A stretch of 18,203 nt of DNA from the IMG/VR virus record IMGVR_UViG_3300045988_036188. The stretch is one strand, 5' to 3'. The notes beneath the pieces are model-generated. The model was not told the DNA's origin. It saw only the letters and a program-made list of their open reading frames with translations, and ran no database searches. The position numbers and the translations under genes are program-made. Within the stretch, counting starts at the first letter, position 1. Every line of letters starts with the position of its first letter. This document shows, in pieces, positions 158-18,132 of this stretch. The stretch is from a virus.

Positions 158-409
158 TTATTGCTTACGTACACGCTTAGGCTTCACACTATGCGCATAA
201 TACTTGCGGCGTACATAGTACATGAAGCACACGACGAACGCAAGCAGTAGAACGGGGTTACTTGTGACGCAATCAAAGACATACATAGCGCACTCTATAA
301 GCGTATCAATCAGCGCAAAAAGCAGCCGCAGAAGTTCGCTAAAGAAGCCGCCTATATTGTCCGTTAGGTTGTTAGCCGCTGTGTATACCTGTTCGCTGGT
401 GCTGTACAT
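158..409 (-). CDS. Small membrane protein (83 aa) with two hydrophobic segments and a basic C-terminal tail; function unknown
   Basis: Internal ATG of track ORF 158..544, preceded on the minus strand by aaaggagtaacaATG. The sequence ...SNPVLLLAFVVCFMYYV is followed by RRKYYAHSVKPKRVRKQ. The promoter lies just upstream on the minus strand. Confidence 0.55.
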   Translation of the reverse strand: MYSTSEQVYTAANNLTDNIGGFFSELLRLLFALIDTLIECAMYVFDCVTSNPVLLLAFVVCFMYYVRRKYYAHSVKPKRVRKQ

Positions 410-437: not shown

Positions 438-466
438 ATAATATAGCAATCGTGTACAGTTGTCAA
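438..466 (-). promoter_or_regulatory. Leftward promoter for the 158..409 gene (minus strand TTGACA-17-TATTAT)
   Basis: The minus strand reads tacTTGACAactgtacacgattgctaTATTATaatag. A second TTGACAA copy lies 14 nt further upstream (plus 475..480). This forms a TTGTCAAGT direct repeat on the plus strand. Confidence 0.5.
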
Positions 467-528
467 GTACATATTGTCAAGTGGTAAATGCGGCTTTATG
501 TAGGAAATATGGAGTACATAAACAGCTA

Positions 529-2693: not shown

Positions 2694-3509
2694 ATGACCA
2701 AGGCTAACGAGAACGCCCGCGCCCGTGTTGCGGATGCAGAACGGAGGGCGCGGCGCAAGATCAAGAGATTGCAGAACAAGGGCGTAAGGACGGGCAGCGT
2801 AGAGCCGTTCAGGACGGTTGACCCGTCGAACACGAGGGCGCTAAACTCATACGCCAACCAGTTGGAAAAGTTCATATCACGTTCGACCCGTTTCGTTGCG
2901 GGGCGCGACGGCACCCCGATACCGTACACGGCTTATAGGGATTACAAACGGCTTGAAAGGCAATGGAACAGGGAACATAATAGATACTGGCAGAAGTTTG
3001 CCGCGCATCCGTTCCTGACTGCCTACGGCGAGAGCGATACCACATTGGGGATGCGTTCGGCTATGGCTCATGTTAAGGGCTTGCCGTTCGGAAACATAGA
3101 CTATCAGCGCCAACTACTCCCCGAGCAGATACGCAGCGAAGCGGATTTGCGGAAGCGAGCGCAGATTTTGAAGCGCGAACTATCCCCGACGTACCAGCGC
3201 AAGCGGATAACGCAGCTTCGCAAGAACCTTTTGGAACACGCCGCGACGTTCAACGACCCGCGAATACCCAACATGATTAGGAAGTTGAGCAACGAACAAC
3301 TGTTTGCGTTGCAGAACTTCACAAACTTCGTCCCCCTTTATTACAGGTACATAAACACCGACCGCGATAACGTGATGGGCGCACAGGCTGACGCTATGGA
3401 CGATGAAGCGCAGAAAGAGCATATGATACTGACCATTCAACAGGTTCAGAACCAGTACCCCAAGAAGCAGACCGGAAAACGCAAGCGTAAAAGCAAAAAA
3501 CGTAGGTAG
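2694..3509 (+). CDS. Terminal protein candidate (271 aa), highly basic with a C-terminal KRKRKSKKRR tail
   Basis: Perfect SD taAGGAGGTGAtccgATG. It lies directly upstream of, and is translationally coupled to, the protein-primed-type polymerase (stop 3507-3509, pol ATG 3512). Size and basic character match phage terminal proteins. The priming residue cannot be assigned from sequence. Confidence 0.6.
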   Translation: MTKANENARARVADAERRARRKIKRLQNKGVRTGSVEPFRTVDPSNTRALNSYANQLEKFISRSTRFVAGRDGTPIPYTAYRDYKRLERQWNREHNRYWQKFAAHPFLTAYGESDTTLGMRSAMAHVKGLPFGNIDYQRQLLPEQIRSEADLRKRAQILKRELSPTYQRKRITQLRKNLLEHAATFNDPRIPNMIRKLSNEQLFALQNFTNFVPLYYRYINTDRDNVMGAQADAMDDEAQKEHMILTIQQVQNQYPKKQTGKRKRKSKKRR

Positions 3510-3511
3510 CT

Positions 3512-5224
3512 ATGGAGTACGCCGCAGACTTCGAGACAACCACAGATATAAATGATTGTCGCGTTTGGGCGTGGTGCGTGTGCGAGATTGACAACCCCGA
3601 CGCACTAAGCTATGGCACGGACATTGCCACGTTTCTTGATTTCTGCAAGGTTCACGGCGGTACATATTATTTCCACAATGCTGCATTCGATTGTGAGTTC
3701 ATTATATGGTACCTGCTGACCAACGGATTTGAGTACAGCGAAAAGGCGAGGACAAAGACTTTCAAAACGCTCATATCAAACATGGGCAAGTTCTATCAGA
3801 TGAAGGTTTGCTTTGAGAAGAAGGGCAAGAATAAAGCGCTAACCTGCACATTCAAAGACAGCTTGAAGAAACTCCCCATGAAGGTATCGCAGATTGCAAA
3901 GGCTTTCGACCTCCCCATATCCAAGTTGGAGATTGACTATACGGAGTACCGCCCCGTAGGTCACGAGTTGACAGCGCAGGAACGAGACTACATCAGGAAC
4001 GACGTTCAGATCGTCGCTAGGGCGCTGCATCAGCAGTTCGGCAAGGGGCTTGACAGGCTCACCATCGGAAGCGACGCGCTCAACGGGTACAAGGACATAA
4101 TAGGCTCGAAGTGGGATGACTGGTTCCCTAAGATTCATCTGGAAATGGACGCGATGATACGCAAGGCGTATCGCGGCGGCTACACATACGCGAACCCTAG
4201 GTTTCAGGCTGACGAGGAACACGAGTACAGGCTGCAGGGCTACGGGGCTGCGTTTGACGTTAACTCGTTGTACCCCGACGTTATGTACAACAGACCGTTG
4301 CCAATCGGGCAGCCGATATATTTCCACGGAGAGTACAAGTACAACCCCCAATATCCCCTGTACATTCAATTCCTAACCTGCCATTGCAAGTTGAAGCCCG
4401 ACCACCTCCCCACGTTGCAGATTAAGAACAACCCGTTCTACTCCGAAACGGAGTACATCCATGACACGGAGGGAACAGTTGAGTTGGCTTTGACCAACAT
4501 AGACTTGGAAATACTCATGCAGCAGTACGACGTGACGGTGTTTTCGTACAACGGCGGGTACATGTTCGAGCAAGCCACTGGACTGTTCAAAGATTACATA
4601 GACTATTGGATGCACATTAAAGAAACTACCACGGGCGGTTTGCGACAGCTTGCGAAGCTCATGTTGAATTCACTTTATGGCAAGTTCGCCACGAACCCCG
4701 ACGTTACGCCGAAACTGCCTTACTTGAAAGAGGACGGTTCAGTTGGGTACAGATTGGGAGAGAAAGAGACGCGCGACCCCGTGTACACGCCTATGGGTTG
4801 CTTCATTACCGCATGGGCTAGGTACAAGACCATCAATGCAGCGCAAAGCGTATACGATAGGTTCATGTATTGTGACACGGACAGCATACACATTTGCGGC
4901 ACAGACATTCCCGAGGGTTTGGAGGTGCATCCTACACGTTTGGGCGCGTGGAAGCATGAGAGCAATTTCAGCATGGCTAAATATATCAGGGCTAAGACGT
5001 ACATGGAGAGAATCTATCAGGTTGGCAAGATGGTTGATGGCGAATACAGGATGGTTGACGTTCAGCCGTTCGATGACGTTAAGTGCGCTGGTATGCCAGA
5101 GGAGTTGAAGCGCATGGTGACGTTCGACAGTTTCAAGAGGGGCTTGCAGCTTCACGGGAAGTTGAAGCCAAGGCACGTTAGGGGCGGTATAGTGCTCGAA
5201 CCCATAACGTTCACGCTCACCTGA
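3512..5224 (+). CDS. Family B DNA polymerase, protein-primed (phi29-like) type, 570 aa
   Basis: Exo I DFETTTD, Exo II YFHNAAFDCEF, Exo III YIRNDVQIV, motif A DVNSLYPDVMY, motif B KLMLNSLYGKF, motif C YCDTDS and KxY (KYIRAKTYME) are all present. Length of about 570 aa and the adjacent terminal protein gene fit the protein-primed type. Confidence 0.95.
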   Translation: MEYAADFETTTDINDCRVWAWCVCEIDNPDALSYGTDIATFLDFCKVHGGTYYFHNAAFDCEFIIWYLLTNGFEYSEKARTKTFKTLISNMGKFYQMKVCFEKKGKNKALTCTFKDSLKKLPMKVSQIAKAFDLPISKLEIDYTEYRPVGHELTAQERDYIRNDVQIVARALHQQFGKGLDRLTIGSDALNGYKDIIGSKWDDWFPKIHLEMDAMIRKAYRGGYTYANPRFQADEEHEYRLQGYGAAFDVNSLYPDVMYNRPLPIGQPIYFHGEYKYNPQYPLYIQFLTCHCKLKPDHLPTLQIKNNPFYSETEYIHDTEGTVELALTNIDLEILMQQYDVTVFSYNGGYMFEQATGLFKDYIDYWMHIKETTTGGLRQLAKLMLNSLYGKFATNPDVTPKLPYLKEDGSVGYRLGEKETRDPVYTPMGCFITAWARYKTINAAQSVYDRFMYCDTDSIHICGTDIPEGLEVHPTRLGAWKHESNFSMAKYIRAKTYMERIYQVGKMVDGEYRMVDVQPFDDVKCAGMPEELKRMVTFDSFKRGLQLHGKLKPRHVRGGIVLEPITFTLT

Positions 5225-5238
5225 TAGGAGGTACAGCA

Positions 5239-5406
5239 ATGATCGAGCGCAGTTTCAGGATTGACGAATCCATGTACGAGCAGCTGAAGGAGATTGGCGA
5301 GAGGGAGAACCTGCCCATATCGTATCTGGTGCGCGTCGCGATCTCGCAGTTTTTGAACGCCTACTCCGATTCGATCGATTTGGTGAAAATGAACGCGAGT
5401 GCTTGA
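5239..5406 (+). CDS. Ribbon-helix-helix (CopG/Arc/MetJ-like) transcriptional regulator, 55 aa
   Basis: Absent from the ORF track, presumably because it falls below the length cutoff. Perfect SD tAGGAGGtacagcaATG. The protein reads MIERSFRIDESMYEQLKEIGERENLPISYLVRVAISQFLNAYSDSIDLVKMNASA. The N-terminal beta-strand (RSFRIDESMY) followed by two helices is the typical RHH layout. Confidence 0.65.
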   Translation: MIERSFRIDESMYEQLKEIGERENLPISYLVRVAISQFLNAYSDSIDLVKMNASA

Positions 5407-5431
5407 CAGTGCTTGCGAAGTGGGTTATGTT
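5403..5431 (+). promoter_or_regulatory. Late promoter (TTGACA-17-TATGTT) overlapping the RHH stop codon, flanked by a GTGCTTG direct repeat
   Basis: Reads aGTGCTTGACAGTGCTTGcgaagtgggtTATGTT. The -35 is at 5403..5408 and the -10 at 5426..5431. The ATG of the first late gene is at 5620. Confidence 0.5.
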
Positions 5432-5619
5432 GGCTATGGTGATACCCAATCCGTCTGGACGATGACCGATGCGGGGTTGCTACGGGTGATGCCGCCCGCA
5501 CGAGTGCGAGCCGCATTAGCAGCGGCGGCGTTTCGGGAATGGCAATATCACCAGCACAGTCAGCCCTCGCCACGGTCACAACCGGATGGCGGGGGCTATT
5601 TTGTTGGAAGGAGAAGAAC

Positions 5620-5973
5620 ATGAACCTAGAGGATTTGCTCGCTTGTCTCCGTGAGAGGATGGAGGATGGCGAGTACGCGACCGCAGAGACGTTCCTCACG
5701 GACATGGCTAAGCGGGGAGCGGATGCCGACGAGTACCGAAGTTCTGCGGAAGCCCGCATGAGCGAGTATGCGTCGAACGAGGAAGCCATGAAGGCTGACA
5801 TTCAGAGTTTGAAGGCTCGCAACTATGACCTGCTGATGCAGATTCCCGCCGACAACAGCGGGGACAACGACGGTGACGGTGTTGTCGTTGAGGACGTGGA
5901 CGAGGACGGCACCGTGTACCACATCGACAACCTTTTCACCGATGACAAGGAGGACAGCAACAATGGCAACTAA
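5620..5973 (+). CDS. Putative scaffolding protein (117 aa), acidic with predicted coiled coil
   Basis: SD reads ttGGAAGGAGaagaacATG. Acidic composition (EDGE..., DNDGDGVVVEDVDEDG). It lies immediately upstream of and overlaps the major capsid gene, as scaffold gp7 does in phi29. Confidence 0.55.
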   Translation: MNLEDLLACLRERMEDGEYATAETFLTDMAKRGADADEYRSSAEARMSEYASNEEAMKADIQSLKARNYDLLMQIPADNSGDNDGDGVVVEDVDEDGTVYHIDNLFTDDKEDSNNGN

Positions 5974-7408
5974 GACTATCAAGACGCTGAACGCGACGAA
6001 CGCGCAGATTTTGAACGCGATTCGCACCGATGCTTCGTTCGCGTACCAGCAGCGCATTCCTGCTGCGACGCAGGGTGACATTACCGAGACGGTGAACAAC
6101 CTGCTCGAATACCGCCCGATGATGAACGAGTTCATCGACGCGCTTGTGAACCGCATCGGAGACGTTGTAATCAAGAGCAAGGTTTGGACTAACCCGCTCG
6201 CGCAGTTCAAGCGCGGTATGATGCAGTACGGCGAGACCATCGAGGAACTTGCCACCACGCTGATCCAGGCTAAGCGCTACGACCCGAACAAGTGCTATGA
6301 TGACGTGTTCGCTTGCCACGCGCCCGACGTTATGAGCAACTTTCACAGCATCAACCGTCAGGACTACTACGAGTTGACCGTCAACGACATGCTTCTGCGC
6401 CGTGCGTTTTTGAACGACTACGGGCTGCAAGACCTCGTGGGGCGCATCATGGAAACGCCGTACACGTCCGACTACTGGGACGAGTACCTTATCATGCGAA
6501 ACCTTTTCGCAGAGTACGCGCGAATCGACGGCTTCTACAAGGTGAACGTTCCCGATGCTTCGGCTGCGTCCACCCGTGCGGAGAAGCAGGACGATGCTAT
6601 GGCGATTACGGAAGCCGTGCGCTCGATGGCTGGCAAGATGCGCTTTCTTTCTGGACAGTACAACGCCGCAGGCGCGCCGACGTTCACGAACAACAACGAC
6701 CTTGTTCTGTTCGCAACTCCCGAGTTCGTGGCTATGCTCGACGTTAACGTTATCGCGTTCGCGTTCAACGCATCCGCAGCCGACTTCAAGATGCGCGTTA
6801 TCGAGATTGACGATTTCGGCATCGACGGTTGCCAAGCCATTCTGTGCGACCGCGATTTCTTCATGTGCGCGGACACGCTTATCGACTTCGAGAGCATCCG
6901 CAATCCCAAGGCGATTTCGTGGAACTACTGGCTGCATCACCACGGCATCTATTCCGTGTCCCGTTTCGTGAACGCAGTCATGTTCACCACGGAAGCTGGC
7001 ACCAGCGTGACTGTTCCCGCCATTAAGGCAACTGGTGTTACGCTTGATTATGCGGAGGTTGACGGAGTGAAACCCACTTACGCAGAGCGCGGTGGAAAGA
7101 CGCGCCTTATCGCCACTGTTCAGGGCACCGTAACGCCCGAGACGGAGGGGTACACGGTTCCGCAGGGCTGCACGTTCGCAATCACCGCGAACAACACGGG
7201 TGTTGAGAGCGGCGGCGTTCGGTTGAAGCTGGGCACGTTCGTGGATGCCGAGGGCGTGCTGCACGTAGCCGAGGATGAAGTTGCGGAGAACGTGACTGTT
7301 ACCGCGACCAGCACCTATATCGACCCGACGGTTGCCATGGGCGAGCAGGTGTACCAGCACAAGGATTTGATTATCGGCATTGACAAGGCGTACACGTCCG
7401 CAGGCTAA
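5963..7408 (+). CDS. Major capsid protein (481 aa) with C-terminal bacterial Ig-like (BIG2-type) domain
   Basis: SD reads acAAGGAGGacagcaacaATG. The N-terminal region (…NAIRTD…VNRIGDVVIKSKVWTNPLAQFKRGMMQYGETIEEL…) resembles the phi29 gp8 major head protein as I recall it. The C-terminal beta-rich segment TVPAIKATGVTLDYAEV…VTVTATSTY looks Ig-like. Confidence 0.8.
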   Translation: MATKTIKTLNATNAQILNAIRTDASFAYQQRIPAATQGDITETVNNLLEYRPMMNEFIDALVNRIGDVVIKSKVWTNPLAQFKRGMMQYGETIEELATTLIQAKRYDPNKCYDDVFACHAPDVMSNFHSINRQDYYELTVNDMLLRRAFLNDYGLQDLVGRIMETPYTSDYWDEYLIMRNLFAEYARIDGFYKVNVPDASAASTRAEKQDDAMAITEAVRSMAGKMRFLSGQYNAAGAPTFTNNNDLVLFATPEFVAMLDVNVIAFAFNASAADFKMRVIEIDDFGIDGCQAILCDRDFFMCADTLIDFESIRNPKAISWNYWLHHHGIYSVSRFVNAVMFTTEAGTSVTVPAIKATGVTLDYAEVDGVKPTYAERGGKTRLIATVQGTVTPETEGYTVPQGCTFAITANNTGVESGGVRLKLGTFVDAEGVLHVAEDEVAENVTVTATSTYIDPTVAMGEQVYQHKDLIIGIDKAYTSAG

Positions 7409-7418
7409 GGAGTAAGTC

Positions 7419-9596
7419 ATGGCACAAGATTTCCCTGGGTTGCCAGAGAACATCTATGAGTACGAGAATAGGTTTAACTATTCGGTATGGACACCGAACA
7501 CGTCTATTCTCATGTGCAACGTGCCGTGGGATTCTTCGTACCGTGACGTGGTGCGCTTTGATTCCGACAAGGAGCGGGACGCTTATTTCGCGTCCCGCTC
7601 CGTTGACGGGTATGCGTTCACGCTGAACGGGCTTGTATATCTTCGATACGGCGAGCCTATCCGCGTGAACGCGCCCTTTGACATGGTTACACGTTGCAAC
7701 TACATGGTTGTGAAGAACCCGCTGCAACCCGTACCTCCGTCTGGCGGCAGACAGCCAGACGTTTTCTACTACTTCGTGAACGACGCGAAGTACATAGCGC
7801 CGAACACCACGCAGGTGAATGTGCAGCTTGACGTGTGGATGACATACTACGACAGAATCAGCTTCGACCTTTGCTACGTGAACAAGGGTCACATCGGAAT
7901 CGCCAACGAGAACAGCACCATCTACAACCTTTCGGAGTACATGACAGATGCGGAGGGTTTGAACATAGGTGACGAGTACGAGATTACAGACCTCGCAATC
8001 GACAACTTTCTCAATGAACCGCCGTACATCGTTATCATGTGCACCGCTGATTTAACTGCTGGGTTCGGCAGCGTGTCAAACCCGACGCTCAAAACGGCTA
8101 CTGGTTCCATCAACGACGGTATGCCGTCTGGTTCGGCGGTGTACGCTTGCAACAGCGTGAACTTCTTGGAGTTGATGAAGAAGATGCAAGATGCGCCGTG
8201 GGTTTCGCAGTGCATCAGCATGGTCACGGTGGTTCCTGCACGTTTCGTTCAGAACGCCACGGAAACGACCGTTGCGGGAGTCCCTATGTTTCGTATGCCA
8301 GAAACACCGGCCGAGAACATCTCATCGTTGCACCTGATGCACGTTATGGACATGTTCCATATTCCCGAGCGGTACAAGAACCTTTTGAAGTTCTACACGT
8401 CACCGTACTGCGTTATCGAAATGACGGCGTACAACGGCGGCGAGATTGTGCTGAAGCCCGAATGCTTGCAGATTAACTCGTACCAAGGTCAGGACAGCAT
8501 CTTGCTTGTCACGGAGACGGTTGTGGCACCGCCCGACATTCGAGGCTATTCGTATGTGGAGGGGTACAACACAGCCAACGGGGTTGGCGGCAGAGTTGAT
8601 GCTGACTACTATCTTCCTAGCGGCGAATCGTTCCCGCATTCGGAGTCCAACCAAGAGGGTTTGGACATAGCCATTCAGTTCAGCAACTTTCCGCAGTTCT
8701 CGCTTGTGAACAATCAGTACATATATTATATGGCATCGAACCGAAACAGGCTTGCGTACCAGTTCGCCGCAGCAGATTGGTCACAGCAGAAATCGCTTAC
8801 GGCAGCGCAGCTTTCGTTCAACCAGAGCGGGGCGAACATGCAGAACGCATGGGCGAACCAGCAGGTAGCCAATCAGGCGAACTGGGCATTGAGCGGAATA
8901 TCGCAGGAGAAGAACCTGTGGAACGGCGCTTCGTCCATGATTTCGTCTGGCGTTGGCGCTGTTGGCAGCCTTGCATCTGGCAACTTCGGCGGTGCCGCCG
9001 CGGACGTTGCCAACATGGCGCTCGCTGGTGCGAACACCGCGCTGAACGCCGACTGGATTAACAGGACTACCGCGACGCAGGTCGGCGCGGCTACCGCGAC
9101 CACGCAGAACAACATCGGCTTGCAGGGGTATATGAGGGACACGAACTATGACTATGCCGTGTACGCCGCGAACGGGGACTACGAGACGGCTATTCAGGGC
9201 ATTCAGGCAAAGGTTCAGGATGCGCGGCTCACGCAGCCGTCCACTTCGGGACAGAACGGCGGCGATGCGTTCAACTTCTGCAAGGGGTACATGGGCGTGC
9301 GGTTGAAGTTCAAGAGGTTGAAGCTGAACTTCCTGCGTCAGGTTGGCGATTTCTGGCTGCGCTACGGCTACTACGTGAACCGTTGGATTGTGCCGCCCGC
9401 CGACTTGAAGTGCATGGAGAACTTCACGTATTGGAAGATGCAGAGCGTTTCGCTTTCGACAAGCGAGGTTCCCGAACTGTTCAAGGAGAGCATCAGGGGC
9501 ATTTTTGAAAAGGGCGTGACAGTTTGGAGCGACCCTGATAAAATGTACAAGATTGACCTAGCCGACAACGAGCCTGTGAAGGGGGTGCGTTACTGA
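7419..9596 (+). CDS. Tail knob / distal tail tube protein (phi29 gp9-like), 725 aa
   Basis: SD reads ctAAGGAGtaagtcATG. The N-terminal region (…ILMCNVPWDSSYRDVVRFDS…) and C-terminal region (…YGYYVNRW…FTYWKMQ…IRGIFEKGVTVWSD) follow the pattern of phi29 gp9. There is an internal Gly/Ala-rich hydrophobic loop (GASSMISSGVGAVGSLASGNFGGAAADVANMALAGA) like the gp9 membrane-penetrating loop. Confidence 0.8.
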   Translation: MAQDFPGLPENIYEYENRFNYSVWTPNTSILMCNVPWDSSYRDVVRFDSDKERDAYFASRSVDGYAFTLNGLVYLRYGEPIRVNAPFDMVTRCNYMVVKNPLQPVPPSGGRQPDVFYYFVNDAKYIAPNTTQVNVQLDVWMTYYDRISFDLCYVNKGHIGIANENSTIYNLSEYMTDAEGLNIGDEYEITDLAIDNFLNEPPYIVIMCTADLTAGFGSVSNPTLKTATGSINDGMPSGSAVYACNSVNFLELMKKMQDAPWVSQCISMVTVVPARFVQNATETTVAGVPMFRMPETPAENISSLHLMHVMDMFHIPERYKNLLKFYTSPYCVIEMTAYNGGEIVLKPECLQINSYQGQDSILLVTETVVAPPDIRGYSYVEGYNTANGVGGRVDADYYLPSGESFPHSESNQEGLDIAIQFSNFPQFSLVNNQYIYYMASNRNRLAYQFAAADWSQQKSLTAAQLSFNQSGANMQNAWANQQVANQANWALSGISQEKNLWNGASSMISSGVGAVGSLASGNFGGAAADVANMALAGANTALNADWINRTTATQVGAATATTQNNIGLQGYMRDTNYDYAVYAANGDYETAIQGIQAKVQDARLTQPSTSGQNGGDAFNFCKGYMGVRLKFKRLKLNFLRQVGDFWLRYGYYVNRWIVPPADLKCMENFTYWKMQSVSLSTSEVPELFKESIRGIFEKGVTVWSDPDKMYKIDLADNEPVKGVRY

Positions 9597-10495
9597 TGGG
9601 AAGGAATCGCAAGGGCAAGCGCAACACGTGGCAGTCTGCTGAAATGAATAACTTGCAGTACCGCATGTACTATGAAATGTTGGAGCAGATGGCTTGCGCG
9701 ATATACCGTTGGGAGGGATTGCCGACGGAGATTGACCAGCGCTTTCTCGAACTGACACTTTTCAATCGCGGAATGAGCGTGTTTTTCTGGGATGACGAGT
9801 ACGATGCTTATTTCTCCACTATGGGCGCACCGTCTGGGCAGATTAACATGTACCAGAATCCGCTTGCGTATATCGCATACGGCACTAACGGCTTTCATCG
9901 TCGGTTGAAGTCTACCGAATGTGTACCCATCTGGAACAACTATCTGCGCAGACCAGACATTAACGCAATGCGAATCTACGCGCGTAGGCTTGCGGACATT
10001 GACAGAACCGTGGACGTGAACCTTATGAGCCAGAAGATGCCGATATTCGCGGTTGTCCCTGAATCGCAGCGGTTGACCATTCAGAACCTTATGAAGCAGT
10101 ATGTGGGCAACGAGCCTATCATCGTGGGCGCTGACGGAATGTTCGACCCGTCGCAGATTACCTACCTTAGTTCTGGTGCGCCGTTCATCACGCCCGAACT
10201 GCTCAAAGCAAAGCAGACGGTTTGGGCAGAGATTATGACGTACTTCGGCATCGAGAACACGAACATCAGCAAAGCGGAGCGAGTTCAGAGCGCCGAGGTC
10301 GAAGCGAACAACGGTCAGATTGAAGCGAACCGCCTTATTCGCCTGAATTGCAGACGCGAAGCGTGCAGGCAGATTAACCGCAAGTACGGGCTTGAGGTTT
10401 GGTGCGACATGAACAAGGACGTTTCTAGCCAGAACATGAACGTGCTTCTCATGGCTGACCCCGAGGTTCAGACGGATGGAGGTGCTGGGTTATGA
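9596..10495 (+). CDS. Head-tail connector (portal) protein, phi29 gp10-like, 299 aa
   Basis: Start overlaps the upstream stop (TGATG). Shows gp10-like segments: …MACAIYRWEGLPTEIDQRFLE…, …EIMTYFGIENTNISKAERVQSAEVEANNGQIEAN…REEACRQINRKYGLEV. The size matches. Confidence 0.85.
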   Translation: MGRNRKGKRNTWQSAEMNNLQYRMYYEMLEQMACAIYRWEGLPTEIDQRFLELTLFNRGMSVFFWDDEYDAYFSTMGAPSGQINMYQNPLAYIAYGTNGFHRRLKSTECVPIWNNYLRRPDINAMRIYARRLADIDRTVDVNLMSQKMPIFAVVPESQRLTIQNLMKQYVGNEPIIVGADGMFDPSQITYLSSGAPFITPELLKAKQTVWAEIMTYFGIENTNISKAERVQSAEVEANNGQIEANRLIRLNCRREACRQINRKYGLEVWCDMNKDVSSQNMNVLLMADPEVQTDGGAGL

Positions 10496-11257: not shown

Positions 11258-11860
11258 ATGGGAATCTACTATCCGTTTCTTGGCGGCGGGCGAACGTGCA
11301 ACCAGATTACAACCCCGCTAGTGTACGACGAATCGCTATCCGTGGAGCAGCAGATCGCTTGTCTGTTCGGCAAGATTGCCAACATCGACAGCGATTTTGT
11401 GACTACGGTTGAGTTCGATGACTTCAAGAGCCAGATTCATGCGGAGCAGGTAGCGCAGACTGAACAGCTTGAAGGGTACACGGATTCGGAGATTGCCAAG
11501 CTGGACAAGGAGTTGCGCGACCTGATTGCAGGTTCGCAGGTTGGCTTGCTTATCTGGAACGTCACGGTTGGCAGGTACACGGGCAACGTTAAAGCAATGC
11601 GTGACTTCTTCAACGATGTTACAGTGCATGCAATCACCGTTGATGCTCTTGCGCAGCTTGACATGACTGTTGACCAGCTTGCGGAATGCGGCTTGAATGT
11701 TCGTGGATTGGCCGTTTTCAGCGGGTACCTCATGAGGGACGATTTCGTGCCAGAGGGCATCACATACGACGGCGCACCGCCGCTCGATGGAAAACTGACC
11801 TGCTCGATTCTCGCTAACGGTGAGGTGCGGGACGGGTACTTCGTAGAAGGGAGTGAATGA
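11258..11860 (+). CDS. Structural protein of unknown role (200 aa)
   Basis: SD reads ttaGGGAGGTGaaatttATG. It lies between the collar and fibre genes. No motif recognised. Confidence 0.55.
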   Translation: MGIYYPFLGGGRTCNQITTPLVYDESLSVEQQIACLFGKIANIDSDFVTTVEFDDFKSQIHAEQVAQTEQLEGYTDSEIAKLDKELRDLIAGSQVGLLIWNVTVGRYTGNVKAMRDFFNDVTVHAITVDALAQLDMTVDQLAECGLNVRGLAVFSGYLMRDDFVPEGITYDGAPPLDGKLTCSILANGEVRDGYFVEGSE

Positions 11861-11864
11861 TGGC
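11841..11864 (+). repeat. 24-bp perfect direct repeat of a translation-initiation region (tcgtagaagggagtgaatgatggc); second copy at 12211..12234
   Basis: Both copies contain the SD GAAGGGAG and an ATGATG start, one for each of the two paralogous fibre genes. Confidence 0.85.
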
Positions 11865-12216
11865 AGGAACGCCAACGACTAACTACCAGTTGCCGACTTA
11901 CGCCGACACGGACGCGCCAGATCTCACGGGCGCGTACAATCAGGCGATGGAGAAAATCGACACGCAGATGAAAACCAATTCCGACGAAGCGGCATCCGCA
12001 ACGTCGGCGGCAGGTACGGCTAAGTCCACCGCAGACAGCGCGTTGGAAACGGCTAACGCGAACGAAGCGGCAATCACCGCGCTCACGGGCAGGGTGGCCA
12101 GTTTGGAAGGCGGTTCGTTTAAGCCGCAAGATACCGACGCAACTCTGACTGTGCAGCAGTTGTCGGAAGCAAAAGTGACCAAAGCTGGCATTGTGTACTT
12201 CAAGCCCGCATCGTAG
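11857..12216 (+). CDS. Short fibre/appendage paralog (119 aa); its N-terminal anchor region is homologous to the 12227..13219 product
   Basis: The N-terminus reads MMAGTPTTNYQLPTYADTDAPDLTGAYNQAMEKIDTQMK, against MMATEYTPNYNLDLYASADKPNLRDQYNAAMGKIDTQMK in the next gene. Both share the LTGRV..EG motif. The start may be the second ATG (11860). Confidence 0.55.
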   Translation: MMAGTPTTNYQLPTYADTDAPDLTGAYNQAMEKIDTQMKTNSDEAASATSAAGTAKSTADSALETANANEAAITALTGRVASLEGGSFKPQDTDATLTVQQLSEAKVTKAGIVYFKPAS

Positions 12217-12226
12217 AAGGGAGTGA

Positions 12227-13219
12227 ATGATGGCTACGGAATACACGCCGAACTACAATCTTGACCTGTACGCTTCGGCTGACAAGCCTAACCTGCGCGA
12301 CCAGTACAACGCCGCTATGGGCAAGATTGACACGCAGATGAAGAAGAGCGCGGATGACGTTACCAACGCCAACGCCAACGTTCTCACGCTGCAAACGCAG
12401 ATGACCGAAGCGCAGAAGGACATTTCGGCGCTGGAATCCACTGTGGAGACGCACGGGACGCAAATCACGGACGTTCAAAAGACGGCTGACGATGCGCTTT
12501 CCCTCGCAAAGACCAACGAGAGCGACATTGCGGACACGCAAGCCGACGTTACGTCGCTCACTGGTCGCGTGACCGCGGTTGAGGGTGCCGCGAAGAAGAA
12601 CGAGACGGGTATTGCTTCGCTTGACACCCGCATGGACGCGGCAGAGGGCGATATCACGGAAGCGCAGAACGACATTAACGGATTGCAGACTGCCGTGAAC
12701 GGGAAAGCACCGATCAACCACGCAAGCACCGACAACACCTATGGTCAGGGTTCGTCTACGAACTTCGGGCATTTGAAGGTGGCAGACAGCGGAAGCGCGG
12801 CGGCATCGTCTGGCACGGCGGCTTCGCCGAAAATGGTTGCTGACCAGATTTCAGCATTAAAGGCACTTCTGGCACCTCAGGCGCTGGAAGCTGCGCACAC
12901 TGTCAATTACAATGGCGGTATCACAGGAAGCGGCATCTTCTCAATCTACGCCAACTCGATTACCGACATTGTTTCTGTTATGCTGAAAAACAACTCGCTG
13001 TCCACACCTGGCACAGGTGGGTACAAAACCGCAACGTTGGGCACCATCCCCAGCGGATACCGCCCGACACGCCTTCTTACGTTCACCGCTTTCTCTGGTA
13101 ATGCGTATTTGCAGATTGAATCAAACGGAGCGGTTAAATTGTCGTTTGCAGACGATGTAGCCCATACGGCAGGTGCGGAAAACGGTTGTGGCTGTATGTT
13201 CTTCGGCAACAGTAGGTGA
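12227..13219 (+). CDS. Tail fibre / receptor-binding protein candidate (330 aa): N-terminal anchor, Ala/Thr-rich coiled-coil stalk, C-terminal globular domain
   Basis: Paralogous N-terminus as described above. The central heptad-like repeats (TEAQKDISALESTVETHGTQITDVQKTADDALSLAKTNESDIADTQADVTSLTGRVTAVEGAAKKNETGIASLDTRMDAAEGDITEAQNDINGLQTAVNGK) are followed by a Gly/Ser-rich distal domain. Confidence 0.6.
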   Translation: MMATEYTPNYNLDLYASADKPNLRDQYNAAMGKIDTQMKKSADDVTNANANVLTLQTQMTEAQKDISALESTVETHGTQITDVQKTADDALSLAKTNESDIADTQADVTSLTGRVTAVEGAAKKNETGIASLDTRMDAAEGDITEAQNDINGLQTAVNGKAPINHASTDNTYGQGSSTNFGHLKVADSGSAAASSGTAASPKMVADQISALKALLAPQALEAAHTVNYNGGITGSGIFSIYANSITDIVSVMLKNNSLSTPGTGGYKTATLGTIPSGYRPTRLLTFTAFSGNAYLQIESNGAVKLSFADDVAHTAGAENGCGCMFFGNSR

Positions 13220-13225
13220 TGAACC

Positions 13226-14497
13226 ATGCCAAGTACCAGAACCATTTGCTATTACGCAATGTACGTTATCGGCGAGGTCGAATCCAACTGGAACTGGACA
13301 GCCGTGAACTACAACGACCCTATCACGATAGGGATGATGCAGTGGTATGGTACACGGGCTGCTGCGCTTCTCAACCGCATCAAAAACGAAATGCCAACTG
13401 CCTACGGGCAGTTGGCTGCTTCGTTGCGTTCGGACATTGAATCGCATGATGCCGGTAGTACGTGGTGGACTAGGCGTTACCTGAACAGGGACGAGGGAAA
13501 CAGCATCATAACTGTTTTCCAAGACGAGGAAAACCATGTGATTCAGGAGAATCAGGCTATAGCCGATTTCGAGGGGTACATTGCGACGCTTGAAGGCTGG
13601 GGAATGAGTCAGTCGTACCCGAAACCTTTGATATTCGCAATGAGCATGTACCATCAATCACCAGCAAGTGCGGGGCAGGTCATTGCAACGGCGGGCGGCA
13701 GCGCCGACCTCGATAGGATATACGGCGTTTGCATGAACCACGGGGTTCTTGGGCAGTACAGGAATCGCTACAACACCGTGTACCAGAGATTGAAGGATTG
13801 GGACGGTGAGAGCAACCCGCCTGATTTCGGTCAGAGCGGAGACGTTGACACAACGCCCGGGGGCAACACCCCTGGGATTAGCACAGAAAAAAGCAAGTTG
13901 GGGTACATCATTCAGAATGGAGATACGCTCATTCTTTACGGCAAAGACGAGTACGAAAAAGGCGTTATATTCTATCCCGCATCTGGACAGGTTTGGATTA
14001 ACGGGTACAACGCGAACGGAACTGACATTGGCGGCGGCAACGAGGGCGGCGGTTCGGAGAGCGGAAGCGAAGCGCAGAACGCCATATGCGAATTGTACCG
14101 CTCATGGCTTGACAGGTTCGCGTACTCGCAGGGTGCTGGACGGCTTGACCCCATAAGCAGCGGATATGGTGACTGTTCTTCTACGGTGTGGTTCGCGTAC
14201 CAGCAGGTTGCTGGAATCGACGTTGGCACGTGGACGGGCGCTATGGCGGGCAAGGGGACGAAGATAGCAAGCGGCTATTCTGGTGACAACCTACCCATCG
14301 AGGATATGGAGCCAGCCGATTTGGTGCTGATTATGTGGAATGGTTGGAACGGCTCATTTGACCACGTTGAACTGTACATGGGCAACAATGAACTTTGGGG
14401 ACATGGTGGACCCGATTACGGACCAGACCAAACCACAACCGATGCTAGGAACTATCCACGGTACATGTATTATTGGGAGGTGAGACGGTACCTATGA
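13226..14497 (+). CDS. Tail-associated peptidoglycan hydrolase (423 aa): N-terminal glycosidase-like region, Gly-rich linker, C-terminal NlpC/P60- or CHAP-like cysteine peptidase
   Basis: Its position matches phi29 gp13. The C-terminal region (…DPISSGYGDCSSTVWFAYQQVAG…FDHVELYMGNNELWGHGG) has the Cys…His…His spacing of NlpC/P60/CHAP enzymes. The linker reads GGGNEGGGSESGSE. Confidence 0.6.
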   Translation: MPSTRTICYYAMYVIGEVESNWNWTAVNYNDPITIGMMQWYGTRAAALLNRIKNEMPTAYGQLAASLRSDIESHDAGSTWWTRRYLNRDEGNSIITVFQDEENHVIQENQAIADFEGYIATLEGWGMSQSYPKPLIFAMSMYHQSPASAGQVIATAGGSADLDRIYGVCMNHGVLGQYRNRYNTVYQRLKDWDGESNPPDFGQSGDVDTTPGGNTPGISTEKSKLGYIIQNGDTLILYGKDEYEKGVIFYPASGQVWINGYNANGTDIGGGNEGGGSESGSEAQNAICELYRSWLDRFAYSQGAGRLDPISSGYGDCSSTVWFAYQQVAGIDVGTWTGAMAGKGTKIASGYSGDNLPIEDMEPADLVLIMWNGWNGSFDHVELYMGNNELWGHGGPDYGPDQTTTDARNYPRYMYYWEVRRYL

Positions 14498-15519
14498 GCG
14501 ACAGTATGTATTACGATTCTCACGACATTATGACGCGCAACGCTATGTTCAATTTCGTTATCGGCGGGCGTGGCACTGGCAAGACGTATGATTTCAAGTA
14601 CAAACGAATCAGGCATTTCATAAAGACTGGTAAGCAGTTCATATACTTGCGCAGATACAAGTCGGAGTTCGATGACAAGCAGGAGTTCTTTCAGGATATT
14701 GTTGACCGCTTTCCATCGTGGGAGTTCAAAGTTGAGGGAATGAAAGGGTACATCAGAAAGGTTGCAATAGGTGATGAAAAGCCAGAGAAATGGCGCGTGC
14801 TATGTTTCTTCATCACGTTGGCAAACGCACTGACCAAAAAGTCCGTACCCTATCCCGACGTTGATATGATAGGATTTGACGAGTTCATCATTGACAAGGG
14901 TTCGCTGCATTACTTGCAAAACGAGTTGAAGCAGTTCCAAGACTTCTACAACACGGTTGACCGATTTCAGGACAGGGTTAAGGTTATGTTCATGGCTAAC
15001 GCCGTGGCGCTCACCAATCCGTACTTCATCGGATGGAGGTTGAAGCCGAGGAAGGGAAAGCGCTTTCTCATGGCGCACAAAGGGTACATGTGTGTAGAGA
15101 TTGTGCAGAGCGAGCGGTTCAGGGCGCACGTGGACACGACAAGATTCGGTCAGATGATACGTGGAACGTCATATTACGATTACGCAGTGGGAAACATGTT
15201 CTACGATGACAATGACAAGTTCATCGCCAAGAAGTCGGAGGAAGCGCGATTCTACTTCGCGTTGCGGTTCGACAACAGGACGGTCGGTGTTTGGGTGGAC
15301 TACACGGAGGGTGTTTACTACGTGTCGCGCAGGTACCCGAAAGATGCGCTGGTTTACGTCTTGACAAAATCGGATATGCAGCCTAACCTGCTTATGATAG
15401 AGAAGTCTAGCGTGGTGTTGCGGAGCGTGCGCAAGCTGTACATGCAGGGAAGCGTGTTCTTCGACACTATCGAGACGCGAGAGTTCTTCAACAACGTGTT
15501 CGACTATCTGGGATTTTAG
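14494..15519 (+). CDS. DNA packaging ATPase (phi29 gp16-like encapsidation protein), 341 aa
   Basis: Walker A FNFVIGGRGTGKTY. The gp16-like stretch FIKTGKQFIYLRRYKSEFDD and a Walker B-like MIGFDEFI are present. SD reads tGGGAGGTGAgacggtacctATG, with ATGA overlapping the upstream stop. Confidence 0.9.
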   Translation: MSDSMYYDSHDIMTRNAMFNFVIGGRGTGKTYDFKYKRIRHFIKTGKQFIYLRRYKSEFDDKQEFFQDIVDRFPSWEFKVEGMKGYIRKVAIGDEKPEKWRVLCFFITLANALTKKSVPYPDVDMIGFDEFIIDKGSLHYLQNELKQFQDFYNTVDRFQDRVKVMFMANAVALTNPYFIGWRLKPRKGKRFLMAHKGYMCVEIVQSERFRAHVDTTRFGQMIRGTSYYDYAVGNMFYDDNDKFIAKKSEEARFYFALRFDNRTVGVWVDYTEGVYYVSRRYPKDALVYVLTKSDMQPNLLMIEKSSVVLRSVRKLYMQGSVFFDTIETREFFNNVFDYLGF

Positions 15520-16697: not shown

Positions 16698-16726
16698 TTG
16701 ACAAGGCAAGTGGTTTTTGATACTAT
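16698..16726 (+). promoter_or_regulatory. Right-end operon promoter (TTGACA-17-TACTAT)
   Basis: Reads tCTTGACAAGgcaagtggtttttgaTACTAT. It shares the extended -35 CTTGACAAG with the promoter at 1826. Confidence 0.6.
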
Positions 16727-17748: not shown

Positions 17749-17816
17749 ATGGGGTGCGTGCGGTACGAGTCCATGAAGCTCAACAACTGGTTTCGGGATA
17801 TTGTTAGGATGGGATT

Positions 17817-18065
17817 ATGATCATCACGACTAAGAATGGCGACATGGTAGATACAGTGCAGATTATCGAAGAAAACGTATATACCATAGATGATGTTAAA
17901 TACGCGGTGGAAACTGACATGTATATTGCTGCAACGGTTCAGATACGAATTTGCGATACTGGAAAGAAACAGCTGGAAGTATCAGACCCGGAAGTTGGAA
18001 AAGAAGCTCAGTACCATCTTCGACAGTTCATCAAGTACATGAAACAGTTGGGGAGGTATTACTGA
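17817..18065 (+). CDS. Hypothetical protein (82 aa), last gene before the right ITR
   Basis: SD reads gttAGGATGGGattATG. No motif recognised. Confidence 0.55.
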   Translation: MIITTKNGDMVDTVQIIEENVYTIDDVKYAVETDMYIAATVQIRICDTGKKQLEVSDPEVGKEAQYHLRQFIKYMKQLGRYY

Positions 18066-18132
18066 TGGCTGAGCCGGTTATAATCAGCGCTAGTCGCCGT
18101 CTACGGCGATAATGTTGTACTTTGTTCCCTCC

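Follow-up and report, generated by a model that had tools for sequence, protein, structure and literature searches.

Which product does the promoter between the replication and the structural genes of a phi29-like phage serve first, and is this promoter controlled by the small DNA-binding protein whose stop codon lies within it? The window analyzed here (the whole stretch of DNA, 18,203 nucleotides) is the complete 18.2-kb genome of such a phage from the human gut, whose host is probably an Eggerthella-like gut actinobacterium. Nearly all genes are located on one strand, and the phi29 packaging set is present with gp16 ATPase, gp10 connector, phi29-type capsid protein, SSB and polymerase (Table 1). 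The first-pass annotation had proposed an early-to-late switch at this position, in which a ribbon-helix-helix (RHH) protein acts on a late promoter flanked by a direct repeat. We consider it probable that the feature is instead the junction of the early replication operon and a gene for a prohead RNA (pRNA). According to this reading, a conserved sigma-70-type promoter, which holds the stop codon of the RHH gene, would start a non-coding RNA of about 168 nt at approximately position 5438, composed of a 115-nt domain with pRNA architecture and a terminator hairpin. By analogy with phi29, copies of this RNA would be linked bulge to loop and form a ring that sits on the prohead's gp10 connector; this ring would dock the gp16 ATPase via the A helix and be needed for DNA packaging. 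One promoter would probably feed both the pRNA and the late operon, with the terminator setting their ratio. The order of polymerase, small ORFs, promoter and pRNA corresponds to the order in phi29 along its early strand.

Table 1. Coordinates of the features discussed in the text (window positions).
Feature	Position	Strand	Basis
Protein-primed family-B DNA polymerase	3512..5224	+	Pfam DNA_pol_B_2, E=6.9e-76; directly upstream of the RHH gene
Shine-Dalgarno AGGAGG of the RHH gene	5226..5231	+	7 nt before ATG 5239, read from sequence
55-aa Arc/CopG-like RHH gene	5239..5406	+	Pfam, PHROG and PDB profile matches; codon-position bias
GTGCTTG-aca-GTGCTTG direct repeat, two copies of a 10-bp unit (5399-5405, 5409-5415)	5399..5415	.	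read from sequence
Sigma-70-type promoter TTGACA-17-TATGTT (-35 5403-5408, 17-nt spacer, -10 5426-5431)	5403..5431	+	scan, 10/12 positions; conserved in relatives
Candidate prohead (packaging) RNA domain I, 115 nt	5438..5552	+	covariance-model match 5439-5551, conservation, compensatory changes, fold energies
A helix, 5' strand	5438..5452	+	GGUGAUA 5438-5444 pairs with UAUCACC 5546-5552; CCAAUCC 5446-5452 pairs with GGAAUGG 5536-5542
Extra small hairpin GUC-UGGACGAU-GAC	5453..5466	+	predicted fold; L020 counterpart GUCA-GGGCGU-UGAC
C helix	5470..5500	+	UGCGGG 5470-5475 pairs with CCCGCA 5495-5500; covariance-model alignment
CE bulge GUUGCUA	5476..5482	+	inside C helix; aligned by the model to the family CE bulge
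E hairpin CGG-GUGAUG-CCG	5483..5494	+	inside C helix; aligned to the family GUGAAA hairpin
D arm with hairpin GCCGC-AUUAGCA-GCGGC	5501..5535	+	predicted fold
A helix, 3' strand with 3-nt bulge CAA (5543-5545), 7-8 bp from junction	5536..5552	+	predicted fold
Intrinsic terminator (hairpin 5562-5597, then UUUUGUU), counterpart of pRNA domain II	5562..5605	+	sequence and fold
First late gene, scaffold-like position	5620..5973	+	no family match
phi29 gp10-type connector (portal)	9596..10495	+	Pfam Phage_connector, E=3e-56; expected RNA docking partner
phi29 gp16-type encapsidation ATPase	14473..15519	+	Pfam Podovirus_Gp16, E=3.9e-72; expected A-helix partner

The RHH gene, its overlapping promoter and the terminator

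The 55-aa ORF and its Shine-Dalgarno sequence, both already noticed in the first-pass annotation, were confirmed. The gene, which starts 14 nt past the stop codon of the DNA polymerase, closes the block of terminal protein and polymerase genes. The previous assignment to the RHH fold agrees with three profile libraries, which match the strand-helix-helix core of the protein: RHH_1 of Pfam covers residues 5-39 (E=2.6e-6, 27.6 bits against a cut-off of 20.5) and RHH_3 scores 23.4 bits (E=5.9e-5), PHROG 3180 'Arc-like repressor' matches with E=7.9e-11, and the best solved structure is the RHH protein ORF56 (2k9i, E=2.8e-4). Substitutions relative to related phages favor third codon positions, e.g. 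5/0/21 and 4/1/18. Using tblastn we found 21 relatives in IMG/VR, of which 19 (L002-L020) belong to the group of the window phage, and a scan of metagenomes with the RHH alignment added 24 further ones, all of them near-identical relatives and no new divergent lineage. Judged by its sequence, the ORF encodes a genuine RHH DNA-binding protein of the Arc/CopG type, which is most likely a transcription regulator. The statement that it lies exactly at the boundary between replication and structural genes was too narrow: the RHH gene does close the replication block, but 213 nt of non-coding sequence (5407-5619) precede the first late gene. A homolog of phi29 p4 is not apparent, as stated before; a Pfam scan of ten small ORFs outside the structural block, all on the plus strand (the left end also carries one on the minus strand), gave no match at all, and the fold of the RHH protein differs.

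The promoter coordinates given in the first-pass annotation hold, and the stop codon TGA (5404-5406) of the RHH gene is indeed placed inside the -35 box. By itself the promoter match is at chance level, with 22 promoter-like sites in the window compared to 15.8 ± 4.1 expected. The call is supported because hexamers and spacing are conserved while the spacer drifts: about 30 sequence variants keep both hexamers and the 17-nt distance, which is within the 16-18 nt of a sigma-70-type promoter, and in L018 12 of the 17 spacer positions differ from the window. The predicted transcription start at about 5438 coincides with the first base of the A helix, the predicted functional 5' end of the RNA. 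This base is located 7 nt past the -10 box in the window as well as in L106, L154 and L164, a promoter-to-helix geometry common to family members. A second, overlapping promoter (TTGCGA-17-TATGGT, 5412-5440) was rejected, as its start would truncate the A helix. Relatives without the RHH gene have consensus promoters at the equivalent place.

The predicted transcript runs for about 168 nt from 5438 to the terminator, which was missed by the consensus terminator scan because its 14-nt loop exceeds the 8-nt limit of that scan. The terminator stem is retained through G-U changes, and the L020 version has a better U-tract. The late genes begin 14 nt past the U-tract; their ribosome-binding site follows it directly and leaves no room for a promoter of their own. 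The promoter scan found no promoter-like site between 5431 and 7440, and the promoter at 5403 is the sole one upstream of the structural genes. As the late genes do not possess their own promoter, their transcription would therefore have to come from read-through of the terminator, and late-gene expression probably depends on it. Start, termination and read-through of this transcript are predictions from the DNA sequence. Consequently, the term "late promoter" used in the first-pass annotation has to be qualified: the immediate product would be the structured RNA of about 168 nt, whereas the late genes are probably served by read-through.

The direct repeat and possible operators of the RHH protein

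The switch suggested in the first-pass annotation implies that an RHH dimer of dimers binds both GTGCTTG copies over the -35 box and turns the late promoter on or off in the manner of p4. Several observations are in line with such an arrangement: the RHH protein is genuine and belongs to the Arc/CopG type of repressors, three lineages have an RHH gene directly ahead of the boundary between pRNA and late genes, and the promoter at 5403 probably also serves the late genes by read-through. The repeat is present as described, it overlaps the -35 box and is retained in most close relatives, and its 10-bp spacing suits RHH dimers on the same face of the DNA, as is the case for RHH operators. Nevertheless, the repeat does not exceed what is expected by chance. 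The window contains ten 7-mer direct repeats with a gap of at most 6 nt compared to 9.2 ± 3.8 in simulated sequences, and GTGCTTG was counted six times with 3.0 expected, a number matched by 20 of 200 shuffles. The exact tandem occurs once, and a search for the motif or the tandem elsewhere in the window revealed no second operator-like site. The first copy is accounted for by the last codons of the RHH gene (Ala-stop) together with the -35 box. In L017 the second copy has become GCGTTTG and in L018 and L019 GCACGGC, and both copies are gone in L020, whereas the N-terminal strand MIERSFRI of the RHH protein is invariant in these four relatives; a repeated operator conserved together with the DNA-reading strand is therefore not represented by GTGCTTG. 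Three copies of the 10-bp unit are present in L013 and L192, a pattern that resembles replication slippage. For these reasons a role of the repeat as an operator is not supported. Around the promoter, no alternative operator common to the window, L018 and L020 was found.

The properties of the promoter point in the same direction. A regulator-dependent late promoter would be expected to have a weak or absent -35 box; here TTGACA is perfect and the spacer is 17 nt long, and such a promoter needs no p4-like activator. A repressor that is made from the early operon and acts at this site would lower or delay the late promoter and would not trigger late expression, and in addition the first product of the promoter would be the pRNA. 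Taken together, we regard a repeat-binding switch at this promoter as quite unlikely.

It is also conceivable, yet unlikely, that the RHH protein regulates other promoters, either by shutting off early genes late in infection or through AAGTGGKTT sites, and that its adjacency to the pRNA gene reflects conserved gene order only. AAGTGGKTT is present four times in the window with 0.18 occurrences expected, and three of the four copies are located on the plus strand at the three strongest plus-strand promoter-like sites (1810, 5418 and 16708), the one at 1810 being conserved in two relatives. A late-acting repressor would also have precedents among phage RHH proteins, as Arc and Mnt of P22 act late. 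However, the enrichment of the motif is a post hoc finding and its placement relative to the -35 and -10 boxes varies among the three sites. Moreover, the copy at 5418 is not conserved in L007, L016, L018 and L019, and no repeat or palindrome typical of RHH operators is evident.

A candidate prohead RNA downstream of the promoter

We return to the reading of the locus as a pRNA gene and to the structure and the conservation of the 115 nt following the promoter. The ends of this domain are paired in the A helix, which has a 3-nt bulge on its 3' strand and a distal helix of only 7 bp, and UGCUA of the CE bulge (5478-5482) is complementary to UAGCA of the D loop (5517-5521). If the CE bulge and the D loop are forced to be unpaired, the predicted fold is exactly the comparative one with -44.8 kcal/mol (-46.7 without constraint), and the fold of the 177-nt region has a z value of -2.8. 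Because of the extra hairpin at 5453-5466, the usual three-way junction would become a four-way junction in the window RNA; a three-way A/C/D junction is absent in the window group, while 27 relatives at other loci have one.

Between 5438 and 5552, relatives have 97-99% identity to the window, although in the same phages the neighboring RHH coding sequence is only 68-86% identical. Within the window group every polymorphism of this stretch is found in a loop or bulge; the 3-nt bulge of the A helix, for example, varies between CAA, CAC and AAA with pairing unaffected. The covariation seen in this group comes essentially from a single divergent relative, L020, in which the A helix (GGUGGUU/AACCACC and CCCAUUC/GAAUGGG) differs from the window by four double compensatory changes and the C helix by two. 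The bulge-loop pair also covaries, from UGCUA/UAGCA in the window to UGCCA/UGGCA in L020, and no change between both phages breaks pairing in the A helix, the C helix or the bulge-loop pair. The D arm is built differently in L020 and was left out of this pair-by-pair comparison. Complementarity of at least 4 nt between CE bulge and D loop that covaries between phages extends to the whole family, with about a dozen distinct bulge-loop duplex sequences: cognate combinations form on average 4.27 contiguous Watson-Crick pairs compared to 2.66 in non-cognate ones, and at least four pairs are reached by 81% of the cognate and 16% of the non-cognate combinations (permutation p<=5e-5). The pairing would fit an intermolecular contact or an internal pseudoknot alike. 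In the Av-1-like RNAs, bulge-loop pairing could not be established by eye.

To place the window RNA into a wider context, we analyzed loci anchored at the polymerase gene. In many of them the polymerase gene is followed by a consensus promoter and a 100-113-nt RNA of the same architecture, and in many the next gene after the RNA encodes the gp16 ATPase. A family covariance model (R3) was built only from these metagenomic polymerase-anchored relatives; it was seeded from one sequence and then iterated, because MAFFT in combination with RNAalifold recovered just the E hairpin from ten hand-trimmed relatives. An alignment of L106 with L154 was dropped because of a one-column register shift between their A helices. 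The covariance models find 27 members just downstream of DNA polymerase genes. In the alignment of these members 90.9% of the cells pair compared to 40-43% with slid partners, and double changes were seen at 39 of the 41 pairs, although these pair counts are inflated because the alignment was fitted to the structure of the model.

R3 recognizes the true pRNA of B103 at its known position (178-287) as top match with 20.1 bits and E=0.0037 (both whole genomes), and that of phi29 at its known position (206-317) with 11.3 bits. It also matches the cultured Eggerthella phage LE1-1 (27.4 bits, E=2.4e-5) and the Arthrobacter phage Mendel, where the RNA starts 2 nt past the RHH gene (26 bits, E=6.8e-5). 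In LE1-1 the RNA is placed elsewhere, ahead of the encapsidation genes, which argues for a conserved association with the packaging machinery and not with one operon. In the window, R3 aligns in full length to 5439-5551 with all elements as predicted; its 9.9 bits correspond to E=3.4 over 37 kb and to E=0.019 in the pre-specified 214-nt gap, and are no better than those of chance hairpins elsewhere in the window, although with this model even the pRNA of phi29 reaches just 11.3 bits. The near-identical RNA copy of L018 reaches 15.9 bits (E=0.06). The Rfam pRNA model RF00044 gave no match at E<=10 either to the whole window or to the 191-nt region alone, and Rfam scans of the window, the 191-nt region, Av-1, LE1-1 and L020 revealed neither pRNA nor another credible family. 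An exact pattern scan of IMG/VR with the core of the E hairpin returned the same contigs and chance matches only, and blastn of the window RNA against 171 loci detected no homologs beyond the window group.

These data also bear on the question whether the stretch from 5438 to 5605 could be a cis-acting leader, comparable to an attenuator or riboswitch, which governs read-through into the late operon and is not a trans-acting packaging RNA. Its position ahead of the late genes, as a structured 5' leader with a terminator at its end, would be compatible with such a function, as would the many relatives in which the RNA directly precedes the ATPase gene with just a U-rich tract in between. We regard this as very unlikely, since the family model recognizes the true pRNAs of B103 and phi29, the covarying bulge-loop complementarity is a hallmark of pRNA, the RNA of LE1-1 is located elsewhere in front of encapsidation genes, and no riboswitch or leader family of Rfam matches the window region.

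Implications and comparison with known systems

To our knowledge, pRNA is the only natural RNA known to form a ring of identical molecules. It is essential to one of the strongest molecular motors and a workhorse in RNA nanotechnology. In the literature searched, pRNA is reported only from Bacillus phage phi29 and its relatives; an Infernal survey from 2025, seeded with the pRNAs of phi29, GA-1 and DLc1, yielded 50 matches in total, 12 of them new (PMC12670572). We slightly favor the view that pRNA is an ancestral part of the phi29-like motor across phages of Actinobacteria and gut Firmicutes, that it is kept at a conserved site downstream of the polymerase gene while its sequence has diverged past the reach of Rfam, and that in actinobacterial lineages (this phage, the Av-1 group and Anjalivirus) the RHH gene has become fused to the promoter or 5' helix of the pRNA. 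If this holds true, the fusion would tie the levels of pRNA and of the late-operon transcript to an early protein, and the four-way junction of the window RNA would be a new structural variant of a ring-forming RNA. A divergent pRNA family with at least about 30 members in gut and actinobacterial phages, including the cultured phages LE1-1 and Mendel, would answer the question whether pRNA is ancestral to the phi29-like motor, would offer structural biology and nanotechnology a large set of natural bulge-loop pairs and junction variants, and would correct existing annotations, among them the "packaging RNA" feature in the Av-1 record. The early/late boundary would have to be reread as well, with an RNA of the packaging machinery as first product of the promoter and late expression probably achieved via read-through.

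Compared with Arc and Mnt of P22, CopG of pMV158 and ORF56 of pRN1, the RHH protein of the window is similar in size (about 45-55 aa) and, by sequence, in its beta-strand followed by two helices. In contrast to these systems, no operator is identifiable and there is no autoregulated promoter upstream, since the gene is the last cistron of the replication operon. With p4 of phi29 it shares the character of a small predicted DNA-binding protein from the early operon of a phi29-like phage, but the fold is different. The p4-dependent late promoter A3 of phi29 is devoid of a -35 box and needs activation, whereas the -35 box in the window is perfect. Furthermore, early and late genes of phi29 are transcribed divergently, with the intervening DNA bent by p4, while almost all genes of the window phage are located on one strand.

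As a lead only, the D12-methyl RNA motif (RF02950) weakly matches the 191-nt region (14.1 bits, E=2, with a gathering score of 57). Its UUGCUA hairpin and AGCA hairpin are aligned with the CE bulge and the D loop of the window RNA; the alignment includes no A helix and places the E hairpin in an insertion.

The pRNA of phi29 (RF00044) is known from the Bacillus phages phi29, PZA, M2/NF, B103, SF5, GA-1, DLc1 and relatives. As in these phages, the window RNA is encoded by a phi29-like phage with gp10 connector and gp16 ATPase, downstream of the polymerase gene and on the early strand, and it has its own promoter, whose predicted start coincides with the first A-helix base. Shared structural elements are a domain of about 115-120 nt closed by the A helix of its 5' and 3' ends, in which a 3-nt bulge lies some 8 bp away from the junction, the C helix with the 5' CE bulge, the E and D hairpins, a covarying CE bulge/D loop complementarity over 4-5 nt, and a 3' hairpin domain, which results in a predicted total of about 168 nt compared to 174 nt in phi29. 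The window RNA differs in that it is not detected by the Rfam model, has a four-way junction and the 3-nt bulge on the 3' strand, and combines a short distal A helix (7 bp) with a long D arm. Instead of occupying a genome end, its gene is part of the late-operon leader and lies on the same strand as that operon, the RHH gene abuts its promoter, and the host is probably an Eggerthella-like gut actinobacterium and not Bacillus.

The closest parallels in gene organization are the Arthrobacter phage Mendel (Anjalivirus) and the Actinomyces phage Av-1 with its relatives, where a small RHH gene between polymerase and head genes (gp09 and ORF7, respectively) is found at the position equivalent to that in the window; in Mendel it is already annotated as RHH. 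Using hhalign, similarity to the window RHH family was weak for the Av-1 family (85%, E=5.9e-6) and undetectable for Mendel gp09. The records of both phages have no RNA annotated at the site of the pRNA-like RNA, which is located at 4935-5032 in Mendel (E=6.8e-5) and at about 4454-4557 in Av-1. Unlike in the window, the last codons of the RHH gene appear to contain the beginning of the A helix in the Av-1 group. Nevertheless, all three share the same order of RHH gene, pRNA-like RNA, hairpin and late genes.

Structured RNA downstream of the RHH gene

The ribbon-helix-helix (RHH) gene ends 213 non-coding bases ahead of the next gene (ATG 5620), and this conserved, structured stretch had been overlooked in the first-pass annotation. 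From about 7 nt past the -10 box it is near-invariant in relatives, with 97-99% identity in domain I compared to 68-86% in the adjacent RHH coding sequence and 76-93% at the 3' end of the polymerase gene. The stretch has a more stable fold than shuffled controls (z=-2.8), and its elements are listed in the table.

Coordinates of features in the window
Feature	Position	Strand	Remark
Protein-primed polymerase	3512-5224	+	
AGGAGG Shine-Dalgarno	5226-5231	+	
RHH ORF, 55 aa	ATG 5239, end 5406	+	
GTGCTTG direct repeat	5399-5405 and 5409-5415		
-35 TTGACA	5403-5408	+	contains RHH TGA stop
-10 TATGTT	5426-5431	+	after 17-nt spacer
A helix, distal	5438-5444 with 5546-5552		comparative fold
A helix, proximal	5446-5452 with 5536-5542		comparative fold
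Small extra hairpin	5453-5466		comparative fold
C helix	5470-5475 with 5495-5500		comparative fold
Bulge GUUGCUA	5476-5482		comparative fold
Hairpin CGG-GUGAUG-CCG	5483-5494		comparative fold
D arm	5501-5535		comparative fold
D-arm loop AUUAGCA	5515-5521		comparative fold
3-nt bulge CAA	5543-5545		comparative fold
Long hairpin and UUUUGUU	5562-5605	+	end of conserved stretch
gp10 connector	9596-10495	+	
gp16 encapsidation ATPase	14473-15519	+	

The ends of the RNA pair (GGUGAUA with UAUCACC), and L020, the one divergent relative, has GGUGGUU and AACCACC at the same positions. A comparison of both sequences revealed four double compensatory changes in the closing A helix, two in the C helix and no broken pair in either; the D arm of L020 is built differently and the pairwise comparison is confined to these two helices. 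Within the group, all polymorphisms are located in loops or bulges. With bulge and D loop constrained to be single-stranded, the minimum-energy fold is exactly the comparative structure (-44.8 versus -46.7 kcal/mol unconstrained). Furthermore, UGCUA in the bulge is the complement of UAGCA in the D loop, and their counterparts in L020 are UGCCA and UGGCA. Such a covarying bulge-loop contact is the hallmark of the phi29 packaging RNA (pRNA), where it joins adjacent molecules in a ring.

The observed set consists of the RHH gene, a conserved promoter over its stop codon, a structured RNA of pRNA architecture from the predicted start and a conserved hairpin with U-tract. In this arrangement the promoter would give rise to a pRNA of about 168 nt, UGCUA/UAGCA contacts would join it into a ring on the connector and the A helix would dock the ATPase, while read-through of the terminator would carry transcripts into the scaffold and capsid operon.

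L020 differs by an additional 96-aa ORF (3377-3667) between RNA terminator and scaffold-like gene and has no recognisable -35 box at its RNA promoter. Window positions 5467-5541 weakly match the Rfam D12-methyl RNA motif (RF02950, 14.1 bits), whose two hairpins (UUGCUA, AGCA) align to the CE bulge and the D loop; a relationship of pRNAs to this orphan motif from metagenomes is possible.

Promoter, direct repeat and RHH protein

A promoter-like match alone means little, since the window contains 22 of them versus 15.8±4.1 expected. Here, about 30 sequence variants preserve the two hexamers at 17-nt spacing while the spacer drifts (12 of 17 positions differ from the window in L018 of the same group), a pattern that marks a functional promoter. 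The first-pass annotation had called it the late promoter, and this position probably holds, as the promoter scan found no promoter-like site between the promoter/RNA region and the late genes, but the first and most conserved product would be the RNA.

The RHH protein had also been proposed to switch this promoter by binding the GTGCTTG direct repeat. Short repeats of this kind occur 10 times in the window versus 9.2±3.8 times in simulated sequence. Furthermore, the second copy is replaced in three group members (L017, L018 and L019) and L020 has neither, although the strand MIERSFRI is identical across all subgroups; in RHH proteins this N-terminal strand reads the DNA bases. The proposed operator is not supported, and a search for another conserved operator found none. 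In group member L013 and the relative L192, the equivalent of 5399-5418 contains the 10-bp unit GTGCTTGACA three times instead of twice, hence two -35 boxes, of which only the proximal one retains the 17-nt spacing. An activator like p4 of phi29 is not needed for a promoter with a perfect -35 box, and a repressor made early would delay rather than trigger late expression.

The motif AAGTGGKTT is present four times in the window versus 0.18 expected (1810-1818, 5418-5426 and 16708-16716 on the plus strand, 7071-7079 on the minus strand). Three copies coincide with the three strongest plus-strand promoter-like sites, but the motif was spotted post hoc and the copy at 5418 is poorly conserved in relatives. 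A longer form, GCTTGC(G)AAGTGGGTT, is common to the 1805 and 5410 regions. Positions 1799-1838 form an imperfect palindrome (GCGGCTTGCAAGT...ACTTGACAAGCCGC) across the -35 box of the plus-strand promoter at 1826 and a TTGCAA, which could serve a minus-strand promoter; RNA searches likewise pick up the palindrome as a hairpin.

The RHH call itself stands, and the positions given for the AGGAGG, the ORF, TTGACA, TATGTT and both GTGCTTG copies were all confirmed. Profile searches in three libraries returned RHH matches (Pfam RHH_1, E=2.6e-6, above cut-off; PHROG "Arc-like repressor", E=7.9e-11; the RHH protein ORF56 among solved structures, E=2.8e-4), and the protein is an unremarkable representative of this known family. 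Substitutions relative to relatives fall mostly on third codon positions (5/0/21, 4/1/18 and 16/7/28 at positions 1/2/3), which identifies the ORF as a real gene.

pRNA-like RNAs in other phages

A search with four aligned polymerases yielded 80 loci at 43-99% identity. At many of these, a consensus promoter and a 100-113-nt RNA come directly after the polymerase gene; as in the window, the closing helix of the RNA starts about 7 nt past the -10 box, and at many loci the gp16 ATPase is the next gene. In this RNA, a long closing helix with a bulge leads into a three-way junction, from which a helix with a 6-8-nt 5' bulge and a GUGAAA-loop hairpin and a second hairpin emerge. A covariance model from a single-sequence seed found 27 members in two iterations; in their alignment, which was fitted to the model, 90.9% of cells pair versus 40-43% with the 3' partners slid by 1-3 columns, and 39 of 41 pairs show two-sided changes. 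Bulge and loop were compared in 26 distinct sequences: contiguous Watson-Crick pairs average 4.27 in cognate and 2.66 in non-cognate combinations, at least four pairs are formed by 81% versus 16%, and none of 20,000 permutations matched the observed complementarity. About a dozen distinct duplex sequences are found in the family.

The third covariance model, without any Bacillus sequence, placed the B103 pRNA (178-287, minus strand, 20.1 bits, E=0.0037) as top match over the B103 and phi29 genomes together. The phi29 pRNA was matched at 206-317 (11.3 bits, E=1.4), and the alignment puts the regions of its CCA bulge, C helix and D loop in their known places. Among cultured phages outside Bacillus, Eggerthella phage LE1-1 matched at 12538-12642 (27.4 bits, E=2.4e-5), within the 210 nt that separate the lysozyme gene from the genes ahead of the encapsidation ATPase, a different genomic place than in the window. 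Bifidobacterium phage BD811P2 matched directly 3' of the polymerase gene (4742-4866, 15.9 bits, E=0.059), and Arthrobacter phage Mendel at 4935-5032 (26 bits, E=6.8e-5), with a hairpin directly downstream. The window itself is matched over the full length (5439-5551) with every element placed as in the comparative fold, but at 9.9 bits (E=3.4 when 37 kb are searched, E=0.019 when the search is confined to the 214-nt gap singled out beforehand) its model-based membership is marginal, and phi29's own pRNA does no better with this model; the nearly identical L018 copy reaches 15.9 bits (E=0.06) and L020 14.7 bits (E=0.14).

In Mendel the RNA starts 2 nt past the stop of gp09, already annotated as RHH and in equivalent position. 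Together with the window group and the group of Actinomyces phage Av-1, an RHH gene is located immediately 5' of a pRNA-like RNA in three lineages. The Av-1 ORF7 family matches the window RHH family (hhalign 85%, E=5.9e-6; RHH_1 matches are weak), and directly after ORF7 (NC_009643, 4454-4557) a covarying structured RNA matches the third model at 12.7 bits (E=0.46). Its closing helix appears to start within the last six ORF7 codons, where CCCAAGUCUGGUAAGUGA pairs with UCACUUUCGGAUAGUUGGG, and this is supported by several compensatory changes in the group, among them a stop codon changed from UGA to UAA with a matching change in the opposite strand of the helix. As the RHH gene directly precedes the RNA in three lineages and the Av-1 helix appears to extend into its codons, a functional tie between both is plausible. 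The Av-1 record places a misc_RNA "packaging RNA" not at ORF7 but at the right end (16295-16402), over minus-strand ORFs, and its annotated -35 box TTGACC is part of the RNA helix.

Genome context and comparison with phi29

The window is a complete linear phi29-like phage genome of 18,203 bases with 71-bp inverted terminal repeats and genes almost all on the plus strand, including a phi29-type SSB, a phi29-type capsid protein, a tail knob, a lysin and a probable terminal protein gene. Contigs near-identical to it originate from human gut metagenomes, and its gp16 has its closest counterparts in actinobacterial phages (Av-1 and phages infecting Bifidobacterium, Arthrobacter and Curtobacterium). 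The sole nucleotide match to deposited phages (17749-18090 to LE1-1 13868-14209, 342 nt, 95% identity) points to a recent exchange and to a host resembling Eggerthella.

At the left end, two TTGACA boxes 14 nt apart upstream of TATTAT/TATAAT (438-480, minus strand) form a strong leftward promoter, so transcription is not all rightward. An exact 60-nt direct repeat within the amidase gene (16443-16502 and 16602-16661) corresponds to two CW_7 cell-wall-binding repeats. The adjacent genes 11857-12216 and 12227-13219 share an identical 24-nt ribosome-binding-site/start region (11841-11864 and 12211-12234) and similar N-terminal coding sequence (11934-11972 and 12304-12342) and look like paralogous tail-fibre-like proteins.

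In the literature searched, two reviews (PMC5066667; PMC11476376) and a 2025 survey seeded with Bacillus-phage pRNAs (PMC12670572) restrict pRNA to phi29 and its relatives among Bacillus phages, and a Clostridium podovirus paper names it only as partner of the ATPase. On this evidence the window RNA would belong to a much larger set of pRNAs that has gone unrecognised, and is unusual in its four-way junction, its place in the late-operon leader and the RHH gene abutting its promoter. Our view of it as a divergent pRNA is built on its architecture taken together with the compensatory changes, the bulge-loop covariation, its position and the geometry of the promoter. The gene order is in agreement as well: along the early strand of phi29, SSB, terminal protein, polymerase and small ORFs are followed by promoter A1 and the pRNA, and in the window SSB, terminal protein, polymerase and RHH are followed by the promoter and the RNA.
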